Shown piece after piece: positions 1 to 7,330 of a stretch of DNA of 7,330 nucleotides; position 1 is the stretch's first letter; every line of letters starts with the position of its first letter. The position numbers and the translations under genes are program-made. A model generated the notes under the pieces. The model searched no databases, was not told the DNA's origin, and worked only from the letters and a program-made list of their open reading frames with translations. The DNA comes from a virus (taxonomy: Duplodnaviria; Heunggongvirae; Uroviricota; Caudoviricetes): IMG/VR virus record IMGVR_UViG_2609459769_000015. One strand, written 5' to 3'.

Positions 1-183
1 ATGACATTTTTACAGCTTATTTTATTGTATTTCTGCACGGCAGTATGTGCGTTATATCTGGTGAGTGGTGGTTATAAGGCCATCAGAAATTATGTTCGCC
101 GCAAAATTGAGGACGCAGCAGCTGAAAAACTCAGTAAAACAGCGCAGGTAACTCCGCTCCCAAAAGACCCGACCCAGCCCTGA
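1..183 (+). CDS. Hypothetical small membrane protein (60 aa): N-terminal hydrophobic helix FLQLILLYFCTAVCALYLV followed by a charged tail
   Basis: ORF begins with ATG at window position 1 (its promoter/RBS, or an upstream extension, would lie outside the window); stop TGA 181-183; 36 bp upstream of the next gene on the same strand. Confidence 0.35.
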   Translation: MTFLQLILLYFCTAVCALYLVSGGYKAIRNYVRRKIEDAAAEKLSKTAQVTPLPKDPTQP

Positions 184-218
184 TTGCAGGGCTTTATTCC
201 CGCATAAGGAGGATATAC

Positions 219-473
219 ATGCCAGAAATTAAAGGCACCGTCACTGAAGACCTGGTAAAACAGGCACTGTATTCCGGTGAAGTAAATAAGTTGCTGAAAG
301 CGCAGGTCCGCAAGGATTTTGAGGCACAAATCGACACTTACGTTGATGAAGTGCTGGCAAAACTTATTGGGCCAGCAGTTGCGGCCAGTGATGCTGATAA
401 TGAGCCGAAAACCGACGCGCAGCCAGAGCAACCAGACCCGGCTCAGCCCGGAACTGACAGTACCATGATGTAA
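219..473 (+). CDS. Hypothetical acidic protein (84 aa) with Pro/Gln/Asp-rich C-terminal tail
   Basis: ATG at 219 preceded by strong Shine-Dalgarno AAGGAGG (205-211); natural-looking composition; stable hairpin immediately after the stop. Confidence 0.5.
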   Translation: MPEIKGTVTEDLVKQALYSGEVNKLLKAQVRKDFEAQIDTYVDEVLAKLIGPAVAASDADNEPKTDAQPEQPDPAQPGTDSTMM

Positions 474-478
474 CAATA

Positions 479-506
479 CAAACCGGTGGTGTCCTCTGCC
501 GGTTTG
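479..506. terminator. Hairpin (8-bp stem CAAACCGG / CCGGTTTG, 12-nt loop) just after the 219..473 stop; possible terminator between convergent genes
   Basis: Perfect inverted repeat at 479-486 / 499-506; no clean U-tract on the plus strand, modest T-rich run on the minus-strand side. Confidence 0.3.
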
Positions 507-530
507 ACACTAATGAAAACATCTTTGCCG

Positions 531-572
531 CTATCCAGCCATATGTAATCGCTGGATAGTATTTCGTATTCA
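531..572 (+). terminator. Hairpin (9-bp stem CTATCCAGC / GCTGGATAG, 11-nt loop) followed by a T-rich tract TATTTCGTATTC; candidate intrinsic terminator
   Basis: Perfect inverted repeat 531-539 / 551-559 followed by T-rich sequence 560-572. Confidence 0.3.
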
Positions 573-640
573 GAAATATAGCTGCTTATGGAGCAGTCAA
601 TCCTGCTTCCCCATCCGGGCAGGCAAATGAACCGGTATCA

Positions 641-934
641 TTAGTCCGATTCACGCTTTTGTAGAATCGTTCCCAGAATGCTATACAGCTCATTAGCCTG
701 TTGCTCCATCATTGAGACGGAGGCTATACGGTGCAAAGTGATTTCAGGAGGTGGCACACCTCCATCTTCTTGCTGTGGAGGAAAAACATAAGATTTAATA
801 AAAAAGTTGAAGCATATGAACTCTCCCGCACTCGAACTGTATTTGCAGGCATCTGAATAATCGGAAAAATAATCATTATAGATTTCCGCATTTTCAATCA
901 TTTTTCGATTTCTCGTCGTTACATGATTGTCCAT
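641..934 (-). CDS. Hypothetical protein (97 aa), divergently oriented from com-mom
   Basis: ATG (reverse complement of 932-934) preceded by Shine-Dalgarno AAGAGG with 5-nt spacer; no family recognised by eye. Confidence 0.5.
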   Translation of the reverse strand: MDNHVTTRNRKMIENAEIYNDYFSDYSDACKYSSSAGEFICFNFFIKSYVFPPQQEDGGVPPPEITLHRIASVSMMEQQANELYSILGTILQKRESD

Positions 935-1057
935 AGCAGCCTCTTACGCTGGCAATTAACCAATTGACTTCTATAAATTAGTTGATTTGTTTGCTTTGCG
1001 GTATTCAAATGTACAATCATTCAGCACTTATGCGTTACAGCACCGTTTAAAATTAGT

Positions 1058-1147
1058 GATCAAACTCATAAATTTTCGCTAATGACATTTCGTGTTATTT
1101 GTTGTATCAATTAAATAAATCAAATCGATCGTTTTTGTCGATCGATT
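1058..1147. promoter_or_regulatory. com-mom upstream control region: three GATC (Dam) sites at 1058, 1127 and 1140, the latter two inside a perfect 9-bp inverted repeat AATCGATCG-N7-CGATCGATT (1123-1147)
   Basis: Read directly from sequence; AT-rich 250-bp intergenic region between divergent genes; candidate -35 ATGACA (1082-1087) and -10 TATCAA (1105-1110) are weak. Confidence 0.5.
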
Positions 1148-1190
1148 GAGTGATAAAGATATCAACAACAAAGCAGGAGGTTATGCGGCC

Positions 1191-1391
1191 ATGTATCGAA
1201 ACATACGGTGCCGACATTGTAACAAGCTACTGGCACGAGCCAGCTTCAGTTATCTGGAAGTTAAATGTCCGCGCTGTAAAACCCTCAATCAAATCACATC
1301 TCAGAGCGCCACAGAGCACCCCACATACACAAGGAAATCCTGTCGTGGGGAACAGAAAGCAAGTTACATCCCGTATCATCAGCACGCCTGA
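1191..1391 (+). CDS. com: Com-like zinc-finger translational activator (66 aa), Mu Com family
   Basis: ATG 1191 preceded by AGGAGG (1175-1180); Cys4 pattern CRHC...CPRC ([30 protein letters not shown]) closely resembles phage Mu Com; 3' end overlaps the start of the mom-like ORF as in Mu. Confidence 0.85.
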
Positions 1392-2082
1392 ACTTATTCA
1401 CTATAACGACAATATCGTCGGTTATGGCTCCCGTGAGTTACGGGTTGAGACAATAAGTTGCTGGCTGGCCCGGCTGGTCGTCGTCAATAAACATTACAGC
1501 CATCGTTTCGTAAATAATTCCTACCTTCATCTGGGCATATTTTCAGAACGGGAGCTGGTTGGCGTAATGCAATGGGGTTATGCCCTTAATCCAAACAATG
1601 GTGCACGCGTCGTAACTGGCACGCAGAACCGCGAATATATGGAGCTTAACCGGTTATGGCTGCATGACTGTATGCCGAGAAACTCCGAATCAAGGGCAAT
1701 CAGTTACGCGCTCAAACTAATCAGACAACTTTATCCGCAGGTGCAGTGGGTTCAGTCGTTTGCAGATGAGCGTTGTGGCTGTCTTGGTGTCGTGTACCAG
1801 GCAAGCAATTTTGATTATGTAGGCAGTCATGAAACAACATTCTATGAACTTGATGGCGAGTGGTATCACGAGATTTGCAAGAATGCAATCAAACGAGGAG
1901 GACAGCGAGGTGAACATCTGCGGGCTAATATCGACAGAGCCAGTGTTCATAAATTCCGTCAGTTTCGTTACATCCGGTTTCTGGACAAGAGAGCCAGAAA
2001 ACGCCTTAACACAAAGCTATTCAAAGTCCAGCCTTACCCAAAACCACAAACAGTTAAAACTGGTTTGAAAGAGAGTGAATGA
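1345..2082 (+). CDS. mom: Mom-like DNA modification protein (acyltransferase-fold adenine-modifying enzyme), about 245 aa if initiated at GTG 1345
   Basis: Long ORF overlapping com out of frame; motifs KHYSH, NSESR, SFAD recalled from Mu Mom; candidate start GTG 1345 with AAGGAAA (1331-1337) upstream; start position is uncertain (the ORF is open from 1150). Confidence 0.75.
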
Positions 2083-2117
2083 ACGCTTAAAAACTCATTC
2101 TAAAACTCAAAAGAAAA

Positions 2118-2158
2118 GCGCCGATTTAGTATCAAATAAGTTGCGTATCGGCGTTTTT
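2118..2158. terminator. Candidate bidirectional intrinsic terminator between convergent mom and dam: stem CGCCGAT / ATCGGCG (2119-2125 / 2147-2153), T5 on plus strand, T-rich run on minus strand
   Basis: Inverted repeat with 21-nt loop, followed by TTTTT (2154-2158) and preceded by AAAAGAAAA (2109-2117) which gives a U-tract for the opposite strand; the loop is long, hence moderate confidence. Confidence 0.4.
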
Positions 2159-2193
2159 CAGCGGTATCAAATGAAATGCAAATCGGTATCAAA
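2128..2193. repeat. Three direct copies of GTATCAAA (2129, 2164, 2186), two within an exact 10-bp repeat CGGTATCAAA (2162-2171 and 2184-2193, 22 bp apart)
   Basis: Read directly from sequence in the mom-dam intergenic region; function unknown. Confidence 0.4.
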
Positions 2194-2244
2194 AAAATCG
2201 CCGCGCTATATTAAAGCCGCTGCAGTTGTTCATATCAGCATGGC

Positions 2245-3102
2245 TCATGCACGCACTCCGTACACGGCAGAACTATCCACGCCACGCGAAGGATCAAATC
2301 CCACCCAGCAGCGCGCCCCAGAAACAGCGATGATTTCTGTTGCAGATTTACTCTCGCCAGCCGACACGCCGATGCTGCGTTTTGCCTTGATGTAGTGGTG
2401 AGTGAAATTTCGATACAGCGAACGGATCAGGGATGTGTCACTGTTAGAAACAATGACTGGATGACCTTCTGATGATCGATATTCAAGAACAGATGCCAGG
2501 TGATACTGGTCATCTTCAGTGAAGCCGTTAGTGTGATAGCCGGAAAACGTACCGTCATAAGGCGGATCGCAATACACCACATCCCCCACCTGCAGCATCG
2601 CCAGCGTTTCATCAAAGCTGGCGCAGATAAACGTTGCTTGCTGGGCTTTCTCTGCAAATGCGCGAATTTCTTTTTCAGGGAAATACGGATTTTTATAATT
2701 ACCGTATGGAATGTTGAAATGCCCGCTCTTGTTATAACGACATAACCCACGGTAACCATGACGATTGAGATACAGGAAATATACCGCTTTCATGAAATCA
2801 GTAATTTCAGTGGAGTAATTAAACTCCTGCCTTATGTTGTAATAAGCCAACTCCCTGTTTGCTTCCTCAAATAAAGCTCTGGCACGAGATATAAACGCCT
2901 CGCAATCAGCAGCAACCTTTTTATAGAGGTTGATTAAATCAGGATTAATATCCGCAACAAGATAGCTGGGGTAATCCGTCTCCATCATCACAGCACAGGA
3001 ACCCGCGAAAGGTTCAACCAGTCGCGGGCCAGCAGGAAGGTGTTTTTTCAGTTCGGACATTACGGCGGTTTTATTTCCCGCCCATTTCAGGATGGTGCTC
3101 AT
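2245..3102 (-). CDS. dam: DNA adenine methyltransferase, Dam family (D12-class N6-adenine MTase), 285 aa
   Basis: Strong resemblance to E. coli Dam along the length: [15 protein letters not shown] (AdoMet motif), [15 protein letters not shown], catalytic DPPY; start ATG at 3100-3102 overlaps the upstream stop in an ATGA junction. Confidence 0.9.
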
Positions 3103-3326
3103 ACAGCACCCCCGTTGTAATGTTTGCCTTTCAGCTCTGCGATTTCCTGACAGGTAATGCAAAGCTGCACACCCGGAATGGCACGGCGGCGTGCTGGCGG
3201 AATTGGCGCTTCACACTCAACGCAAAGCACGCGGGACACGCCCGGCGTTTTGGCACGGGCAGCACGGATATGGCGCTGGCGTTCTTCTTCAACGCGCTGC
3301 TGTACGAGATCCATTGCATCAGCCAT
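3099..3326 (-). CDS. TraR/DksA-family C4 zinc-finger protein (75 aa)
   Basis: CVEC...(17 aa)...CITC four-cysteine motif and size typical of phage TraR-like proteins; start overlaps the upstream gene stop (TAATG). Confidence 0.8.
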   Translation of the reverse strand: MADAMDLVQQRVEEERQRHIRAARAKTPGVSRVLCVECEAPIPPARRRAIPGVQLCITCQEIAELKGKHYNGGAV

Positions 3327-3559
3327 TAGTGGATCTCCTGCGCTTCGTTCTGGATTGCTTCAGCAGTCACACGCAGCAGTTCTGCCGCTTCCACGTGGTT
3401 TAGCTGACGGGATGAGATATGACACGCCAGGCTATCAAGGCGAGCTGCCATTGCTTCAGCCCTTGCCCGGCGTTCTTCCAGACGAGCCTCTGTCAGTAAA
3501 ATATTAAGCCCTGCGTCATCCGGTCCGGTTTTAGTCGTGAGGGTTTCAATATTACGCAT
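3326..3559 (-). CDS. Hypothetical early protein (77 aa), Ala/Arg/Glu-rich helical
   Basis: ATG (reverse complement of 3557-3559) preceded by AGGAG with 8-nt spacer; translationally coupled to the TraR-like gene; resembles small conserved proteins of P2-like early operons. Confidence 0.6.
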   Translation of the reverse strand: MRNIETLTTKTGPDDAGLNILLTEARLEERRARAEAMAARLDSLACHISSRQLNHVEAAELLRVTAEAIQNEAQEIH

Positions 3560-3626
3560 AATCAATTCTCCTGAATTTAGATAAAGGGATGCCCGGCGGG
3601 TTTACGCCATTAATTTCATTAGTTGG

Positions 3627-3968
3627 TTAATTCGGCATGGTTAGCCGTCTGGGAAATAAGCTCACCACTGCACGAAAATGATTCATTGCTTTAATCAGCT
3701 CCCGCTTTTCGTCAGTGGTCAGCTCATTAATGCTGATGCTATGACGTTCAGCTGGAATTTTTGCCATAAAGAATATGGCAGCCAGTGCCCGTTTATTTTG
3801 TTCATTATTGATATCCCGTGGATCACGCATATCTTTAATAAACCGCTCAAGCTCTGACTCAATATTCAGGCCAAAAACTTTCGCCCTTAACTCCGCAATG
3901 TGATTAAGTCCATTCAGGCGTTCACCGGGGCTTAATGGAACAGTTGCTGCAGCGCCATTAATTGCCAT
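3627..3968 (-). CDS. Hypothetical early protein (113 aa)
   Basis: ATG (reverse complement of 3966-3968) with G-rich RBS; ordinary protein-like composition; no family recognised by eye. Confidence 0.55.
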   Translation of the reverse strand: MAINGAAATVPLSPGERLNGLNHIAELRAKVFGLNIESELERFIKDMRDPRDINNEQNKRALAAIFFMAKIPAERHSISINELTTDEKRELIKAMNHFRAVVSLFPRRLTMPN

Positions 3969-3990
3969 ACTTCATATCCCCCAAACGCAG

Positions 3991-4215
3991 CTATCGTTCT
4001 TTGTTCTTACGGTAACGCTCAAGAGGAGATACATTTTTTCGTATCGTCTCTTTAACCTGCTCTCCCCGTAAAAACGTCCCATCCTTTAACGCGAAAAAGT
4101 AACTGCCATCGCCCGACAATGACGGATAGCAACAGAGCAAATCATCTTCAGGTACTGAATAACTCTCCCCTCTGTAACGAAACTGATAAACCACTTCACT
4201 TTCTGCCGCATACAT
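3991..4215 (-). CDS. Hypothetical early protein (74 aa)
   Basis: ATG (reverse complement of 4213-4215) preceded by GGAGAAAG; natural-looking sequence; overlaps the 3' extension of the upstream ORF in another frame. Confidence 0.6.
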   Translation of the reverse strand: MYAAESEVVYQFRYRGESYSVPEDDLLCCYPSLSGDGSYFFALKDGTFLRGEQVKETIRKNVSPLERYRKNKER

Positions 4216-4382
4216 TTGGACTTTCTCCGTTTCCTCGTGGTCAATTCAGACAGCAATTCATCTTGTGAATGACATGGATGCCAGCGTTTTCCATCCTCAC
4301 CCGTGATCCAGCCGTGACCGTAGTGCATTGCCGGGCTTTGTTTTACCAGCAGCGATGCAAATGATGGTTCTTTCGTCAGCAT
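4086..4382 (-). CDS. Hypothetical early protein downstream of cII (position of 186 fil); 98 aa as it stands, but the last ~42 aa look like out-of-frame read-through
   Basis: ATG (reverse complement of 4380-4382) preceded by GAGGTG; N-terminal 56 aa look protein-like, C-terminal part (Cys/Arg/Trp-rich) overlaps the 3991..4215 gene for 130 nt. Confidence 0.4.
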   Translation of the reverse strand: MLTKEPSFASLLVKQSPAMHYGHGWITGEDGKRWHPCHSQDELLSELTTRKRRKSKCMRQKVKWFISFVTEGRVIQYLKMICSVAIRHCRAMAVTFSR

Positions 4383-4389
4383 AAGCACC

Positions 4390-4899
4390 TCACAGCAAAC
4401 CGAATGAAGCACCGAGGCCAGTCACGGTATCAACTGCACTCGCCATCGCAGGGTTAGCCTGTAAACGGGCCTGCAATGAAACAGCAGCCAACGCCATCAG
4501 TCGTGTTACAGAGTTAATGCTGCTGATAGCATCACGACGACCTGCACTGGTTTTTACATCGCCAGATACCGCACCTGCAGCAACACGCCCGATCTCTGCG
4601 GTTGCACTCATGACGTAATGTGGCAGTTTCTCTTTTGCCACCTCATTAATTGGTACGCATGGCAGGCAGTGAATCTGTGCCAGAAAACCATCTACCAACG
4701 TTGAATCTTCAGTCAGATCGGTAAGCAGCCAGATTTCTGGTGCGGTTAATAAATGAGGTTGAGCTGGGTTCAGCTTGTTCCGCAGAATCTGCACATTCAT
4801 GCCCGCACGTTCTGCCAGTTGCACCAGATTGTGGCGCAGTGCGAATGCACGACAGGCTTCATCAAAATGTGGATGTTTGGAAACTTGGTAATCAAACAT
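4390..4899 (-). CDS. cII: Phage 186-type CII lysogeny-establishment activator (169 aa)
   Basis: Sequence [19 protein letters not shown]...[28 protein letters not shown] closely matches what I recall of phage 186 CII; ATG at 4897-4899 (reverse) is preferred over the TTG at 4906-4908 given by the ORF track. Confidence 0.85.
4873..4899. promoter_or_regulatory. Candidate CII operator: inverted 7-bp half-sites ATGTTTG (4873-4879) and CAAACAT (4893-4899), 20 bp centre-to-centre, overlapping the cII start codon; implies a rightward CII-dependent establishment promoter reading antisense through apl toward cI
   Basis: Half-sites read directly; the sequence and two-helical-turn spacing match my recollection of the 186 CII binding site at pE; weak -10-like ACTTAT at 4915-4920. 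Confidence 0.5.
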
Positions 4900-4963
4900 G
4901 GTTTTCAACTCCGAACTTATCGCAAAATCGAACTCAGCGTCTTATTGCGAAAATAGACGTCTA

Positions 4964-5167
4964 TTAAGCAGACAAAGCATCAACAGTCAGAGCAGCCAGG
5001 TTAATCATTACCTTTTCACGTTTTTTGTCTTTACGAAGACGATGACGAGGTAGTCGGCCATCAGCCAACATGTCGTTAATCGTATCAATAGAAAGGCCAG
5101 TCAGTTCGCTATAACGTTCGATTGTGACATGTGGTGTATTCAGAGTAATTGAAATGTTAGGTGTCAT
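4964..5167 (-). CDS. apl: Apl/Cox-family excisionase and transcriptional regulator (67 aa), first gene of the lytic operon
   Basis: HTH segment [25 protein letters not shown] resembles P2 Cox / 186 Apl; position immediately opposite cI across the switch region. Confidence 0.65.
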
Positions 5168-5312
5168 AAGGCAACATTCCTTCTAGATATGGCTTGTGGC
5201 GAGCCGTTGTTTGTCGTGATTAGTAGTGAAGGCTCCAAAAGAACACTTCTGGTTCAACTTTAAGATCGCTTTTGGAATCTGTCAACGAATTTTGGATTTC
5301 TTTGGAGGACTT
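5168..5312. promoter_or_regulatory. Lysis-lysogeny switch region. Candidate leftward lytic promoter (pR-like): -35 TTGACA (minus strand, 5280-5285), 17-bp spacer, -10 TAAAGT (5257-5262). Weaker candidate rightward promoter (pL-like): -35 GTGTCA 5161-5166, -10 TAGATA 5184-5189
   Basis: Hexamers read from sequence; face-to-face arrangement is that known for 186/P2; helically phased TTTGGA repeats at 5271, 5291, 5301 and TGTGGA at 5311 overlap the -35. Confidence 0.45.
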
Positions 5313-5882
5313 GTGGATTTCAATAGCGGCGGTAAGAAAGCCATAGAACGTTTAGTTGAAGCATATGGGTTCGGTACCCGTCAGGCTCTCTGTGATCATT
5401 TAGGTGTTTCTAAGAGCACCATGGCAACGCGCTATATGCGTGATATTTTTCCAGCAGATTGGGTAATCCAGTGCGCCCTTGAAACGGGCACCTCGCTTAA
5501 TTGGCTAACAACAGGGCATGGTTCAAAGCAAGCATCAGCAAATACAAATACTATAGAAGTAGAAAAATATTTATTGTCTGATGGAGCATTGCAGAAAGAC
5601 GGTTTTTATATTTTTGATAAGGGATTTCTACCCTCTACGTTTAAAAAACCTTTTGTCATCACAGATAACAATTCTGAATTTATTTGTGATAAAGAATTTG
5701 ATGATATACGTGATGGTAAATGGGTAATAAGTATTGATGGCGAAATAACGATCCGTGACATTACTCGTTTACCCGGTGGAAGAATCTTCGTCGAGGGTGG
5801 AAACAGAGCCTTCGAATGCAAGATAGAAGACATTGAAATAATTGGTAAAATTATAAGTTTAACAGTCAAGTATGTTAAATAG
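5313..5882 (+). CDS. cI: Phage 186-type CI immunity repressor (189 aa from GTG 5313; the ORF is open from GTG 5226)
   Basis: N-terminal HTH region ERLVEAYGF...CALETGTSLNWLTTGHG matches the 186 CI repressor family; GGAGG (5304-5308) precedes GTG 5313; the C-terminal half is AT-rich. Confidence 0.85.
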   Translation: MDFNSGGKKAIERLVEAYGFGTRQALCDHLGVSKSTMATRYMRDIFPADWVIQCALETGTSLNWLTTGHGSKQASANTNTIEVEKYLLSDGALQKDGFYIFDKGFLPSTFKKPFVITDNNSEFICDKEFDDIRDGKWVISIDGEITIRDITRLPGGRIFVEGGNRAFECKIEDIEIIGKIISLTVKYVK

Positions 5883-5897
5883 TACCGGGAGGAAACT

Positions 5898-6089
5898 ATG
5901 CTTGGTAAGGTATTTTTTGTGGTTTTGTCATGTTCTTTGTTATTAAACCCACTAACTACCTATGCTAGAAATTATCCCTGCTCAGGGAAAAAGGGAGGTG
6001 TTTCTCACTGTACCTCAGATGGCAAATTCGTTTGCAATGATGGAACTATTAGTAAATCCAAAAAAATCTGTACTAAAAACTCACGATAA
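5898..6089 (+). CDS. Small secreted Cys-rich protein (63 aa): signal peptide then a ~40-aa basic mature peptide with 4 Cys; moron between cI and int
   Basis: ATG 5898 with strong GGGAGG RBS (5-nt spacer) 16 bp after the cI stop; hydrophobic N-terminus [18 protein letters not shown]; AT-rich relative to flanks. Confidence 0.6.
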
Positions 6090-6224
6090 CTTTTGCTTTT
6101 ATATCTGCGTCTAAAATAAAAATGAGCCGCAGGTTAACCGCAAAAGTTACATGCTCACATAGCAAAAAGAATAGCCAACTTCATGATGGCTTCAGTGAGA
6201 TGTATGGTCGTAGGATTTCATACA

Positions 6225-6253
6225 TTGACACTGGTTATACATACAGTAAAAAT
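6225..6253 (+). promoter_or_regulatory. Near-consensus sigma70 promoter upstream of int (-35 TTGACA 6225-6230; -10 TAAAAA/AAAAAT 6247-6253) whose spacer is a LexA-box-like palindrome CTGGTTATACATACAG (6231-6246)
   Basis: Read from sequence; 13 of 16 positions match the CTGT-N8-ACAG LexA consensus (CTGG half-site as in ruvA box), with a perfect ACAGTA distal half. Confidence 0.4.
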
Positions 6254-6277
6254 GCTCTCTACTGGAGGGCATTTTTT

Positions 6278-7330
6278 ATGGCAGTACGAAAACTCACCAC
6301 AGGGAAATGGCTTTGCGAATGTTACCCCGCCGGACGTAGTGGGCGTCGTGTGCGTAAACAATTCGCCACCAAAGGCGAAGCTCTGGCTTTTGAGCGCCAC
6401 ACGATGGAAGAAACCGAAGCAAAGCCCTGGCTGGGTGAATCAGTGGATCGTCGAACACTGAAAGACGTAGTTGAGCTATGGTTCAAACTACATGGTAAAT
6501 CTCTGACAGCTGGGCAGCATGTCTATGACAAATTGCTGTTGATGGTTGACGCTCTGGGTAATCCTCTTGCAACCGATCTCACCTCTAAAATGTTTGCCCA
6601 CTATCGAGATAAACGCCTGACAGGCGAGATCTACTTCAGCGAGAAATGGAAGAAAGGAGCAAGCCCGGTCACCATTAACCTGGAGCAAAGCTATCTAAGT
6701 AGTGTTTTTAGCGAACTATCCCGTCTGGGCGAATGGTCGTATCCGAACCCACTGGAGAACATGCGAAAATTCACCATCGCAGAAAAAGAGATGGCATGGC
6801 TTACCCATGAGCAGATTGTTGAATTGCTGGCTGATTGCAAACGTCAGGACCCAATTCTGGCACTGGTAGTTAAGATATGCTTAAGCACAGGCGCACGCTG
6901 GCGTGAAGCCGTAAATCTTACCCGCTCACAGGTGACCAAATACCGAATTACCTTTGTCAGAACGAAGGGGAAGAAAAACAGAAGCATCCCTATCAGTAAA
7001 GAGCTTTACGAAGAGATCATGGCGCTTGATGGGTTCAATTTCTTTACAGACTACTATTTTCAATTTTTATCCGTGATGGAAAAAACGTCTATCGTGCTCC
7101 CTCGCGGTCAACTCACACACGTTCTGCGCCATACGTTTGCGGCGCACTTCATGATGTCGGGTGGAAACATTCTCGCCTTACAAAAAATTCTCGGACACCA
7201 CGATATAAAAATGACTATGCGTTACGCACATCTGGCACCAGATCATCTGGAAACGGCGCTCCGTTTCAATCCTCTGGCAACGCTGCCAAGTGGCGACAAA
7301 GTGGCGGCAGCGGTTGGCATTACCCCGTAA
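6278..7330 (+). CDS. int: Tyrosine site-specific integrase, P2/186 family (350 aa)
   Basis: N-terminus MAVRKLTTGKW...RKQFATKGEALAFERHT parallels P2 Int; catalytic region LSTGARWREA, HVLRHTFAAHF, MRYAHL with active-site Tyr; ATG 6278 preceded by GGAGGG (6265-6270); stop is the last codon of the window. Confidence 0.9.
   Translation: MAVRKLTTGKWLCECYPAGRSGRRVRKQFATKGEALAFERHTMEETEAKPWLGESVDRRTLKDVVELWFKLHGKSLTAGQHVYDKLLLMVDALGNPLATDLTSKMFAHYRDKRLTGEIYFSEKWKKGASPVTINLEQSYLSSVFSELSRLGEWSYPNPLENMRKFTIAEKEMAWLTHEQIVELLADCKRQDPILALVVKICLSTGARWREAVNLTRSQVTKYRITFVRTKGKKNRSIPISKELYEEIMALDGFNFFTDYYFQFLSVMEKTSIVLPRGQLTHVLRHTFAAHFMMSGGNILALQKILGHHDIKMTMRYAHLAPDHLETALRFNPLATLPSGDKVAAAVGITP

Follow-up and report, generated by a model that had tools for sequence, protein, structure and literature searches.

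Gene content of the two blocks

The stretch of DNA analyzed here, hereafter referred to as the window, comprises 7,330 nucleotides. Based on the listing of open reading frames and Pfam scans, it was divided into two gene blocks, a left one spanning positions 1-2082 and a right one spanning positions 2245-7330. The following genes were assigned to the right block:

2245-3102, minus strand: dam, encoding a D12-class N6-adenine DNA methyltransferase of 285 aa (PF02086, E 1.9e-76)
3099-3326, minus strand: gene for a TraR/DksA-type zinc-finger protein of 75 aa (PF01258, E 4.4e-11)
3326-3559, minus strand: gene for a DUF2732 protein (PF10809, E 3.2e-29), named 'Orf80 protein' in phage vB_EcoM-813R9
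3627-3968, minus strand: gene for a DUF5347 protein (PF17282, E 3.7e-33), named 'replication protein GpB' in vB_EcoM-813R9
4086-4382, minus strand: fil, 186 Fil family, 98 aa (annotated as Fil in the related locus L001; PF10893 on the identical product)
4390-4899, minus strand: cII (CP76 family) regulator gene (PF06892, E 3.2e-42)
4964-5167, minus strand: apl/cox-position gene, the first of the early operon (the gene at the same position is Cox in vB_EcoM-813R9; no Pfam match)
5313-5882, plus strand: cI repressor gene of the 186 type (PF07022 and PF16452)
5898-6089, plus strand: gene for a YdcA-like small protein of 63 aa, between cI and int (PF27300 on the identical product; no match in the Pfam scan of the window itself)
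6278-7330, plus strand: tyrosine integrase gene (PF24624 and PF00589)

Pfam assignments and nucleotide identity revealed the early-region synteny of 186/P2-like phages (Peduoviridae), which is present from int through dam in the order int, YdcA-like gene, cI, apl/cox, cII, fil, DUF5347 gene (annotated gpB), DUF2732 gene (orf80), TraR/DksA gene and dam. The arm at positions 2211-7330 is 100% identical over 5120 nt to the chromosome of E. coli 1283, its best megablast match, and shares 95% nucleotide identity with Escherichia phage vB_EcoM-813R9 (ON470620). This phage, Klebsiella phage 4LV2017 and the prophage of E. coli 1283 feature the same gene order as the window at 95-100% identity, and the prophage of the relatives is integrated beside rcdA (ybjK). 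An earlier note on this DNA had placed TraR-like and dam genes between positions 2245 and 3565, which was confirmed (minus strand) and can be extended by the DUF2732 gene. The retron-Ec67 phage (phiR67) is likewise a 186/P2-like prophage carrying dam in its early region; in the window, neither a reverse transcriptase nor msr/msd was noticed, the ORFs scanned with Pfam included no reverse transcriptase domain, and an Rfam scan of the window returned no match at the gathering threshold.

Regarding gene calls, the listed dam ORF of 305 aa, which starts with TTG at 3162, is too long and reaches into the TraR gene. The start annotated in relatives is the ATG at 3102, which overlaps the stop codon of the TraR gene by 4 nt. 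Furthermore, fil (4086-4382) and a 74-aa ORF (3991-4215) overlap in different frames, both on the minus strand, and annotations of identical DNA call either of them. The slot between cI and int (5898-6277) is variable, being occupied by the 63-aa YdcA-like ORF in the window and by a 1.7-kb 'chromosome segregation ATPase' gene in vB_EcoM-813R9 (L036, 7656-9332).

The left block and the adjoining non-coding stretch contain the following features:

1-183, plus strand: accessory gene for a DUF1378 small protein (PF07125, E 9.4e-32), also found in the Mu-like prophages L002, L003 and L023
219-473, plus strand: accessory gene for a DUF826 protein (PF05696, E 6.4e-16)
641-901, minus strand: hypothetical ORF of 86 aa in a low-GC stretch (GC 0.35-0.41; WP_000571916.1 in relatives; no Pfam match)
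1058, 1127 and 1140 (1058-1143), no strand: three GATC sites upstream of com, located by motif position, the only GATC sites in 1-2210
1191-1391, plus strand: com, translational activator of mom (PF10122 Zn_ribbon_Com, E 7.5e-13; annotated as Com in relatives)
1345-2082, plus strand: mom, encoding a DNA adenine modification enzyme, the last Mu-like gene (PF25680 Mom, E 7.8e-78)
2083-2210, plus strand: right end (attR) of 128 nt, with the terminus ...CGCCGCGCTATA at 2210; the same terminus occurs at 11 other sites

With com and mom on the plus strand and dam on the minus strand, the left block is convergent with dam, so that the convergent module described in the note was indeed found to the left of dam (com at 1191-1391 and mom at 1345-2082). 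The com-mom module represents the terminal genes of a Mu-like end. In Mu, D108 and SfMu, com and mom are likewise the last genes at the right end and show about 71-72% nucleotide identity; their mom region, about 72% identical, is located within about 120 nt of the right genome end. The module of the window matches positions 35950-36598 of the 36717 positions of Mu.

Beyond the left edge of the window, every relative of the segment 1-2210 carries more of a Mu-like prophage, namely DUF6645/SASA, invertase and tail fibre genes, and a gene A homolog directly past this edge is not to be expected. A complete copy of 38.4 kb (L023) resides in bcsA. Its genes encode a repressor, a small HTH protein, a MuA-type transposase, an ATPase of the AAA type at the place of MuB, Gam and Mor, followed by genes for lysis, a Mu gpT-type head, a contractile tail, the baseplate, and invertase and tail-fibre genes, and by DUF6645/SASA, DUF1378, DUF826, com and mom. 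Complete copies resemble Mu in their MuA-type transposase, MuB-type ATPase, Gam, Mor and invertase and in their inverted three-site ends. In contrast to Mu, D108 and SfMu, they harbor DUF6645/SASA, DUF1378, DUF826 and the 86-aa ORF between invertase and com. This interval (1-1190 and beyond; L003, L023), which encodes a SASA/DUF6645 protein of 684 aa, the DUF1378 and DUF826 proteins and the 86-aa ORF on the opposite strand, is without counterpart in Mu; to the left of com its GC content decreases to 0.35, and it looks like an accessory or moron region. Moreover, a 'tRNA-OTHER' is annotated at L023 25044-25123 between head morphogenesis and virion morphogenesis genes.

The breakpoint and the dam-A adjacency in relatives

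The whole window was compared by megablast to phage records and to 5426 complete E. coli genomes. The P2-like part was matched by 59 phage records and 1771 E. coli records, and among the matches listed all start at position 2211. Bases 1-2260 matched about 700 E. coli genomes, 18 of which cover 97-98% of this query at up to 100% identity, most of them ending at 2210-2213. Neither among the phage records nor among the complete E. coli genomes (5426) was there a record spanning 80% of the window. Homology thus breaks exactly at 2210/2211. Across this breakpoint (denoted by a slash), the window reads ...CGCCGCGCTATA / TTAAAGCCGC..., and strain 1283 reads ...GGCGGCCTCG / TTAAAGCCGC... at the same place; alignment of the two revealed identity from 2211 rightwards and none leftwards. 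Two features are located at the breakpoint:

2211-2248, minus strand: 5' remnant of gene A, codons 1-12 plus 2 nt (identical to L001 12001-12038)
2211-2214, no strand: TTAA, the predicted 4-bp target-site duplication, in line with the duplications of 4 bp read at three insertion sites of this phage

On the minus strand, positions 2248-2211 read ATG AGC CAT GCT GAT ATG AAC AAC TGC AGC GGC TTT AA. This remnant of 38 nt is identical to the start of gene A in E. coli 1283, where the gene is intact (804 aa); the ATG of the remnant overlaps the stop codon of dam (ATGA). The frame of A continues into the Mu-like end, where a stop follows after 19 codons. The window represents the junction of two prophages, composed of the right end of a Mu-like prophage (1-2210) and the left arm of a 186/P2-like prophage (2211-7330). 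The intact replication endonuclease gene A (PF05840) expected downstream of the early genes is absent from the window, which contains its start only. The earlier statement that no replication initiator follows dam therefore holds insofar as no intact one was found within the window, but the first 38 nt of A do follow dam. By contrast, the assumption that the operon terminates after dam was not borne out, as a terminator scan of the window found no terminator-like site there and the start of A overlaps the dam stop codon.

The region following dam was also inspected in relatives. In strain 1283, the gene next to dam encodes a 'replication endonuclease' of 804 aa that matches PF05840 (Phage_GPA, E 1.4e-126), with the two genes overlapping by 4 nt (ATGA). 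The sequence ...GGCCTCG / TTAAAGCC... is unbroken in strain 1283 and in nine further loci encoding an identical Dam protein. Full-length A of 794-804 aa is present in six of these nine; of the other three, one has an A shortened to 452 aa by a deletion further downstream, one is a deleted remnant in which A is not called, and one shows a portal gene remnant of 131 aa. At places featuring the identical integrase, A lies downstream of dam in all cases (10/10) and directly so in eight, the remaining two showing an extra ORF of 273 aa between dam and A and a dam gene split by IS21, respectively. The dam/A junction was also probed with 240 bp from strain 1283; of 1136 complete E. coli genomes matching this probe, 1100 had it intact (coverage of at least 80%), and vB_EcoM-813R9 shows the dam-A arrangement as well. 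Exact look-ups of Dam, Mom and Int retrieved, among the matches listed (24 of 198, 24 of 2424 and 24 of 1740 blocks, respectively), nothing but loci with dam-A intact or Mu-like copies located elsewhere, and no rarer protein was found in the window. The adjacency of dam and A is the rule in this phage group; among the loci inspected, it was seen in all cases in which this stretch is intact, and the dam stop codon overlaps the A start (ATGA) in the relatives examined. While vB_EcoM-813R9, 4LV2017 and the E. coli 1283 prophage encode an intact A directly after dam, A is cut after 38 nt in the window.

Side observations on these loci concern the 273-aa ORF between dam and A, which has no Pfam match (L028, 2144-2965), the IS21-family element inside dam (L034, 915-3222), and a locus downstream of A (L006, L008, L011 and L012, about 14300-18320) at which DarT/Macro, AIPR, SieB or DUF4145 genes are found, differing by strain.

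These data bear on explanations that treat the locus as one natural element, i.e., a variant with A located elsewhere, a satellite-like element devoid of A, or com-mom cargo between dam and A. Variation does occur nearby, as illustrated by the extra ORF between dam and A in L028 and by the variable loci downstream of A in P2-like phages (DarT/Macro, AIPR, SieB). Nevertheless, the window includes a start of A that breaks off in mid-codon, and the arm matches that of a complete prophage without any difference. The supposed cargo forms a continuous part of a 38-kb transposable phage, whose end it matches identically and which shows the same terminal base everywhere. Accordingly, explanations of this kind are considered extremely improbable. 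The unusual natural gene order put forward earlier is not supported, given the intact dam-A junction in 1100 of 1136 probe-matching genomes and the A start kept in the window. Likewise, a satellite, understood as a small element without structural genes and a replication module of its own, does not agree with an arm that is 100% identical to a full-length P2-like prophage, since this relative encodes capsid, terminase and portal genes; the other half of that suggestion, a defective element, is probably correct, with insertion as the cause. The proposal of cargo between dam and the replication gene came closest, as an insertion is indeed present. However, cargo loci of P2-like phages hold their cargo between intact core genes, and the breakpoint found here lies inside gene A, with the inserted DNA being the end of a Mu-like prophage of about 38 kb.

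Terminus and target sites of the Mu-like element

The terminal base of the Mu-like end (...GCGCTATA) is the same at 11 other, unrelated chromosomal sites of E. coli. All of them have ...AAAAAAATCGCCGCGCTATA in common and differ from the following base onwards, where no base is preferred. They include ypdB, elyC, bcsA, citF, a position near lpxK and a T6SS locus, among others; across the genomes carrying this end, the adjoining genes vary (ypdB, elyC, bcsA, citF, cheB, a diguanylate cyclase gene, fimD and others). As judged from these sequences, a constant terminus combined with unrelated flanks fits transposition and not site-specific integration, and the insertion sites of this lineage appear effectively random, as in Mu.

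Within the last 82 nt of the element, the motif GTATCAAA occurs three times, at 2129, 2164 and 2186. The complete 38.4-kb copy possesses three such motifs per end, inverted at the left end (first 172 nt), and one copy elsewhere. Since Mu features three sites per end (L1-L3 and R1-R3), the repeats are regarded as putative transposase-binding sites.

For three insertions of the same Mu-like lineage, both junctions were read, yielding 4-bp duplications of GACG, TAGA and ACTG. Duplications and termini were taken from positions 2205-2214 of the window, L023 6961-6975 and 45390-45400, L024/L025, and L002 1261-1272 and 11725-11737. The right terminus of the lineage is TA (...TATA-3'), and the left terminus reads TATAACC (two copies) or TGTAACC (one copy). 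A length of 5 bp, as duplicated by Mu, was considered and rejected: with the pair of termini kept constant, 5 bp is not obtained at each of the three insertions, whereas 4 bp fits all. Phage Mu ends with TG...CA and duplicates 5 bp of its target. In contrast, the right terminus ...TA, the left terminus TA/TG and a duplication of apparently 4 bp distinguish the present lineage, so that its termini and target duplication appear unlike those of Mu. The mechanistic analogy with MuA would be one of gene content and end architecture.

Proposed insertion into gene A and its implications

The breakpoint, the nature of the two partners, the start of A that is still present and the Mu-like terminus that is constant at other sites were observed directly. 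On this basis, it is proposed that a resident 186/P2-like prophage received a Mu-like transposable prophage by transposition within the 5' end of its gene A and that the window covers the right-hand junction of this insertion. A probability of roughly 0.8 is assigned to this interpretation. The insertion point would lie within gene A, two nucleotides past codon 12, cutting the gene in mid-codon, so that the last 2210 nt of the Mu-like genome would abut base 38 of A. The early operon would thus be broken rather than ending after dam, and its transcript would run antisense into mom. Since the left junction lies outside the window, we infer the position of the rest of A: the remaining 2.4 kb would be located beyond the Mu-like genome of about 38 kb, behind the 4-bp TTAA duplication. 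Simple insertion would give a left junction of the form ...GCTGCGGCGGCCTCGTTAA / T(A/G)TAACCAGGTGAATCATTTGATACC..., in which GCTGCGGCGGCCTCGTTAA is the continuation of gene A. Modelling of this junction regarding an A fusion started from the Mu-like left end gave 19 in-frame codons and no ATG, and such a fusion was dismissed.

In P2, the A protein acts in cis and the origin of replication lies inside gene A. If this arrangement applies, the distal piece of A would carry the replication origin. Because of these features of P2 A, the P2-like prophage would be expected to be unable to replicate; moreover, the composite element would be too large to package. The P2-like phage was therefore probably made defective by the Mu-like insertion 38 nt into A.

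The junction was also searched for in other collections. The right junction is absent from the 5426 complete E. coli RefSeq genomes, which hold no independent replicate of the event, and exact searches of viral, representative-genome and metagenome contig collections did not find a 34-mer spanning it. Concerning the predicted left junction, the T[A/G]TAACC pattern is absent from viral and metagenome contigs, and the TGTAACC form is absent from viral and genome contigs, the latter search being of little weight as the closest relatives have TATAACC. Furthermore, a protein look-up revealed that neither the junction-spanning ORF 2075-2395 nor its ATG-started version (2171-2395) is on record.

The absence of the junction from complete E. 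coli genomes and from viral, genome-representative and metagenome contigs, together with the fact that both partners are common, repeated elements, would also be compatible with an assembly artefact, in which two prophages of the same or of different genomes were joined in a chimeric contig. However, the join falls precisely on the final base of the element, which is also where the element ends at 11 genuine insertion sites, and a collapse of repeats is expected inside shared sequence, of which the two partners have none at the join. Because the join coincides with the terminal base of the element, a chimeric contig is rated as very unlikely.

A rearrangement associated with the Mu-like phage was considered as well, in which the rest of A or of the P2-like prophage was deleted or moved by replicative transposition or by recombination between copies. 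Several copies of the Mu-like phage per genome are common, at up to four places, and provide substrates for recombination; deleted remnants are common in both phages (a Mu-like copy of 10.5 kb, L002, and truncated P2-like prophages, L007 and L009), and the window shows the right junction of the Mu-like insertion only. On the other hand, both partners are pristine, the arm being 100% identical to an intact prophage and the Mu-like end 100% identical to intact copies, and nothing in the window favours rearrangement over simple insertion. Rearrangement is therefore regarded as unlikely, and simple insertion into gene A is retained as the preferred interpretation.

A nested prophage as found here represents an already known and ordinary kind of event, as Mu-like phages inside other prophages have been published. 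In LC727881 and LC727895, the annotation of Stx prophages marks the region of an inserted Mu-like phage, along with a 4-bp 'duplication due to insertion', and among 13 closed genomes of CC119 STEC, six of ten Mu-like (Sp18-like) phages were located inside mobile elements (PMC10132054). The Sp18-like phages in Stx prophages are thus nested Mu-like phages, too, and show 84.6% identity over 39% of window positions 1-2215 with the same end at 2210. They differ from the present case in that the host prophage is lambdoid (Stx-converting) instead of P2-like, in that the lineage is related but not identical, and in that another gene is disrupted.

Considering the regulatory context, the three GATC sites upstream of com, clustered within 90 nt, recall the Dam/OxyR-dependent control region of Mu mom. 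The phage dam gene lies about 1.1 kb away by accident of the insertion, and its adjacency to the GATC sites is best read as coincidence. More far-reaching readings, according to which this Mu-like lineage, abundant in E. coli and marked by its apparent 4-bp duplication and TA termini, often disables resident prophages by hitting essential genes in a competition among prophages, or the neighbouring dam feeds a Dam-dependent mom switch, are judged highly doubtful. Random transposition is expected to produce a junction like this single one at an AT-rich TTAA site.

The relevance of the finding is chiefly one of annotation. Taken at face value, the locus would appear as a P2-like element with an odd gene order or as a satellite without a replication gene, and handling it as a single element leads to wrong boundaries, wrong cargo calls and a false signal of a missing replication gene. 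The com-mom module belongs to a virus other than the one contributing the dam arm.
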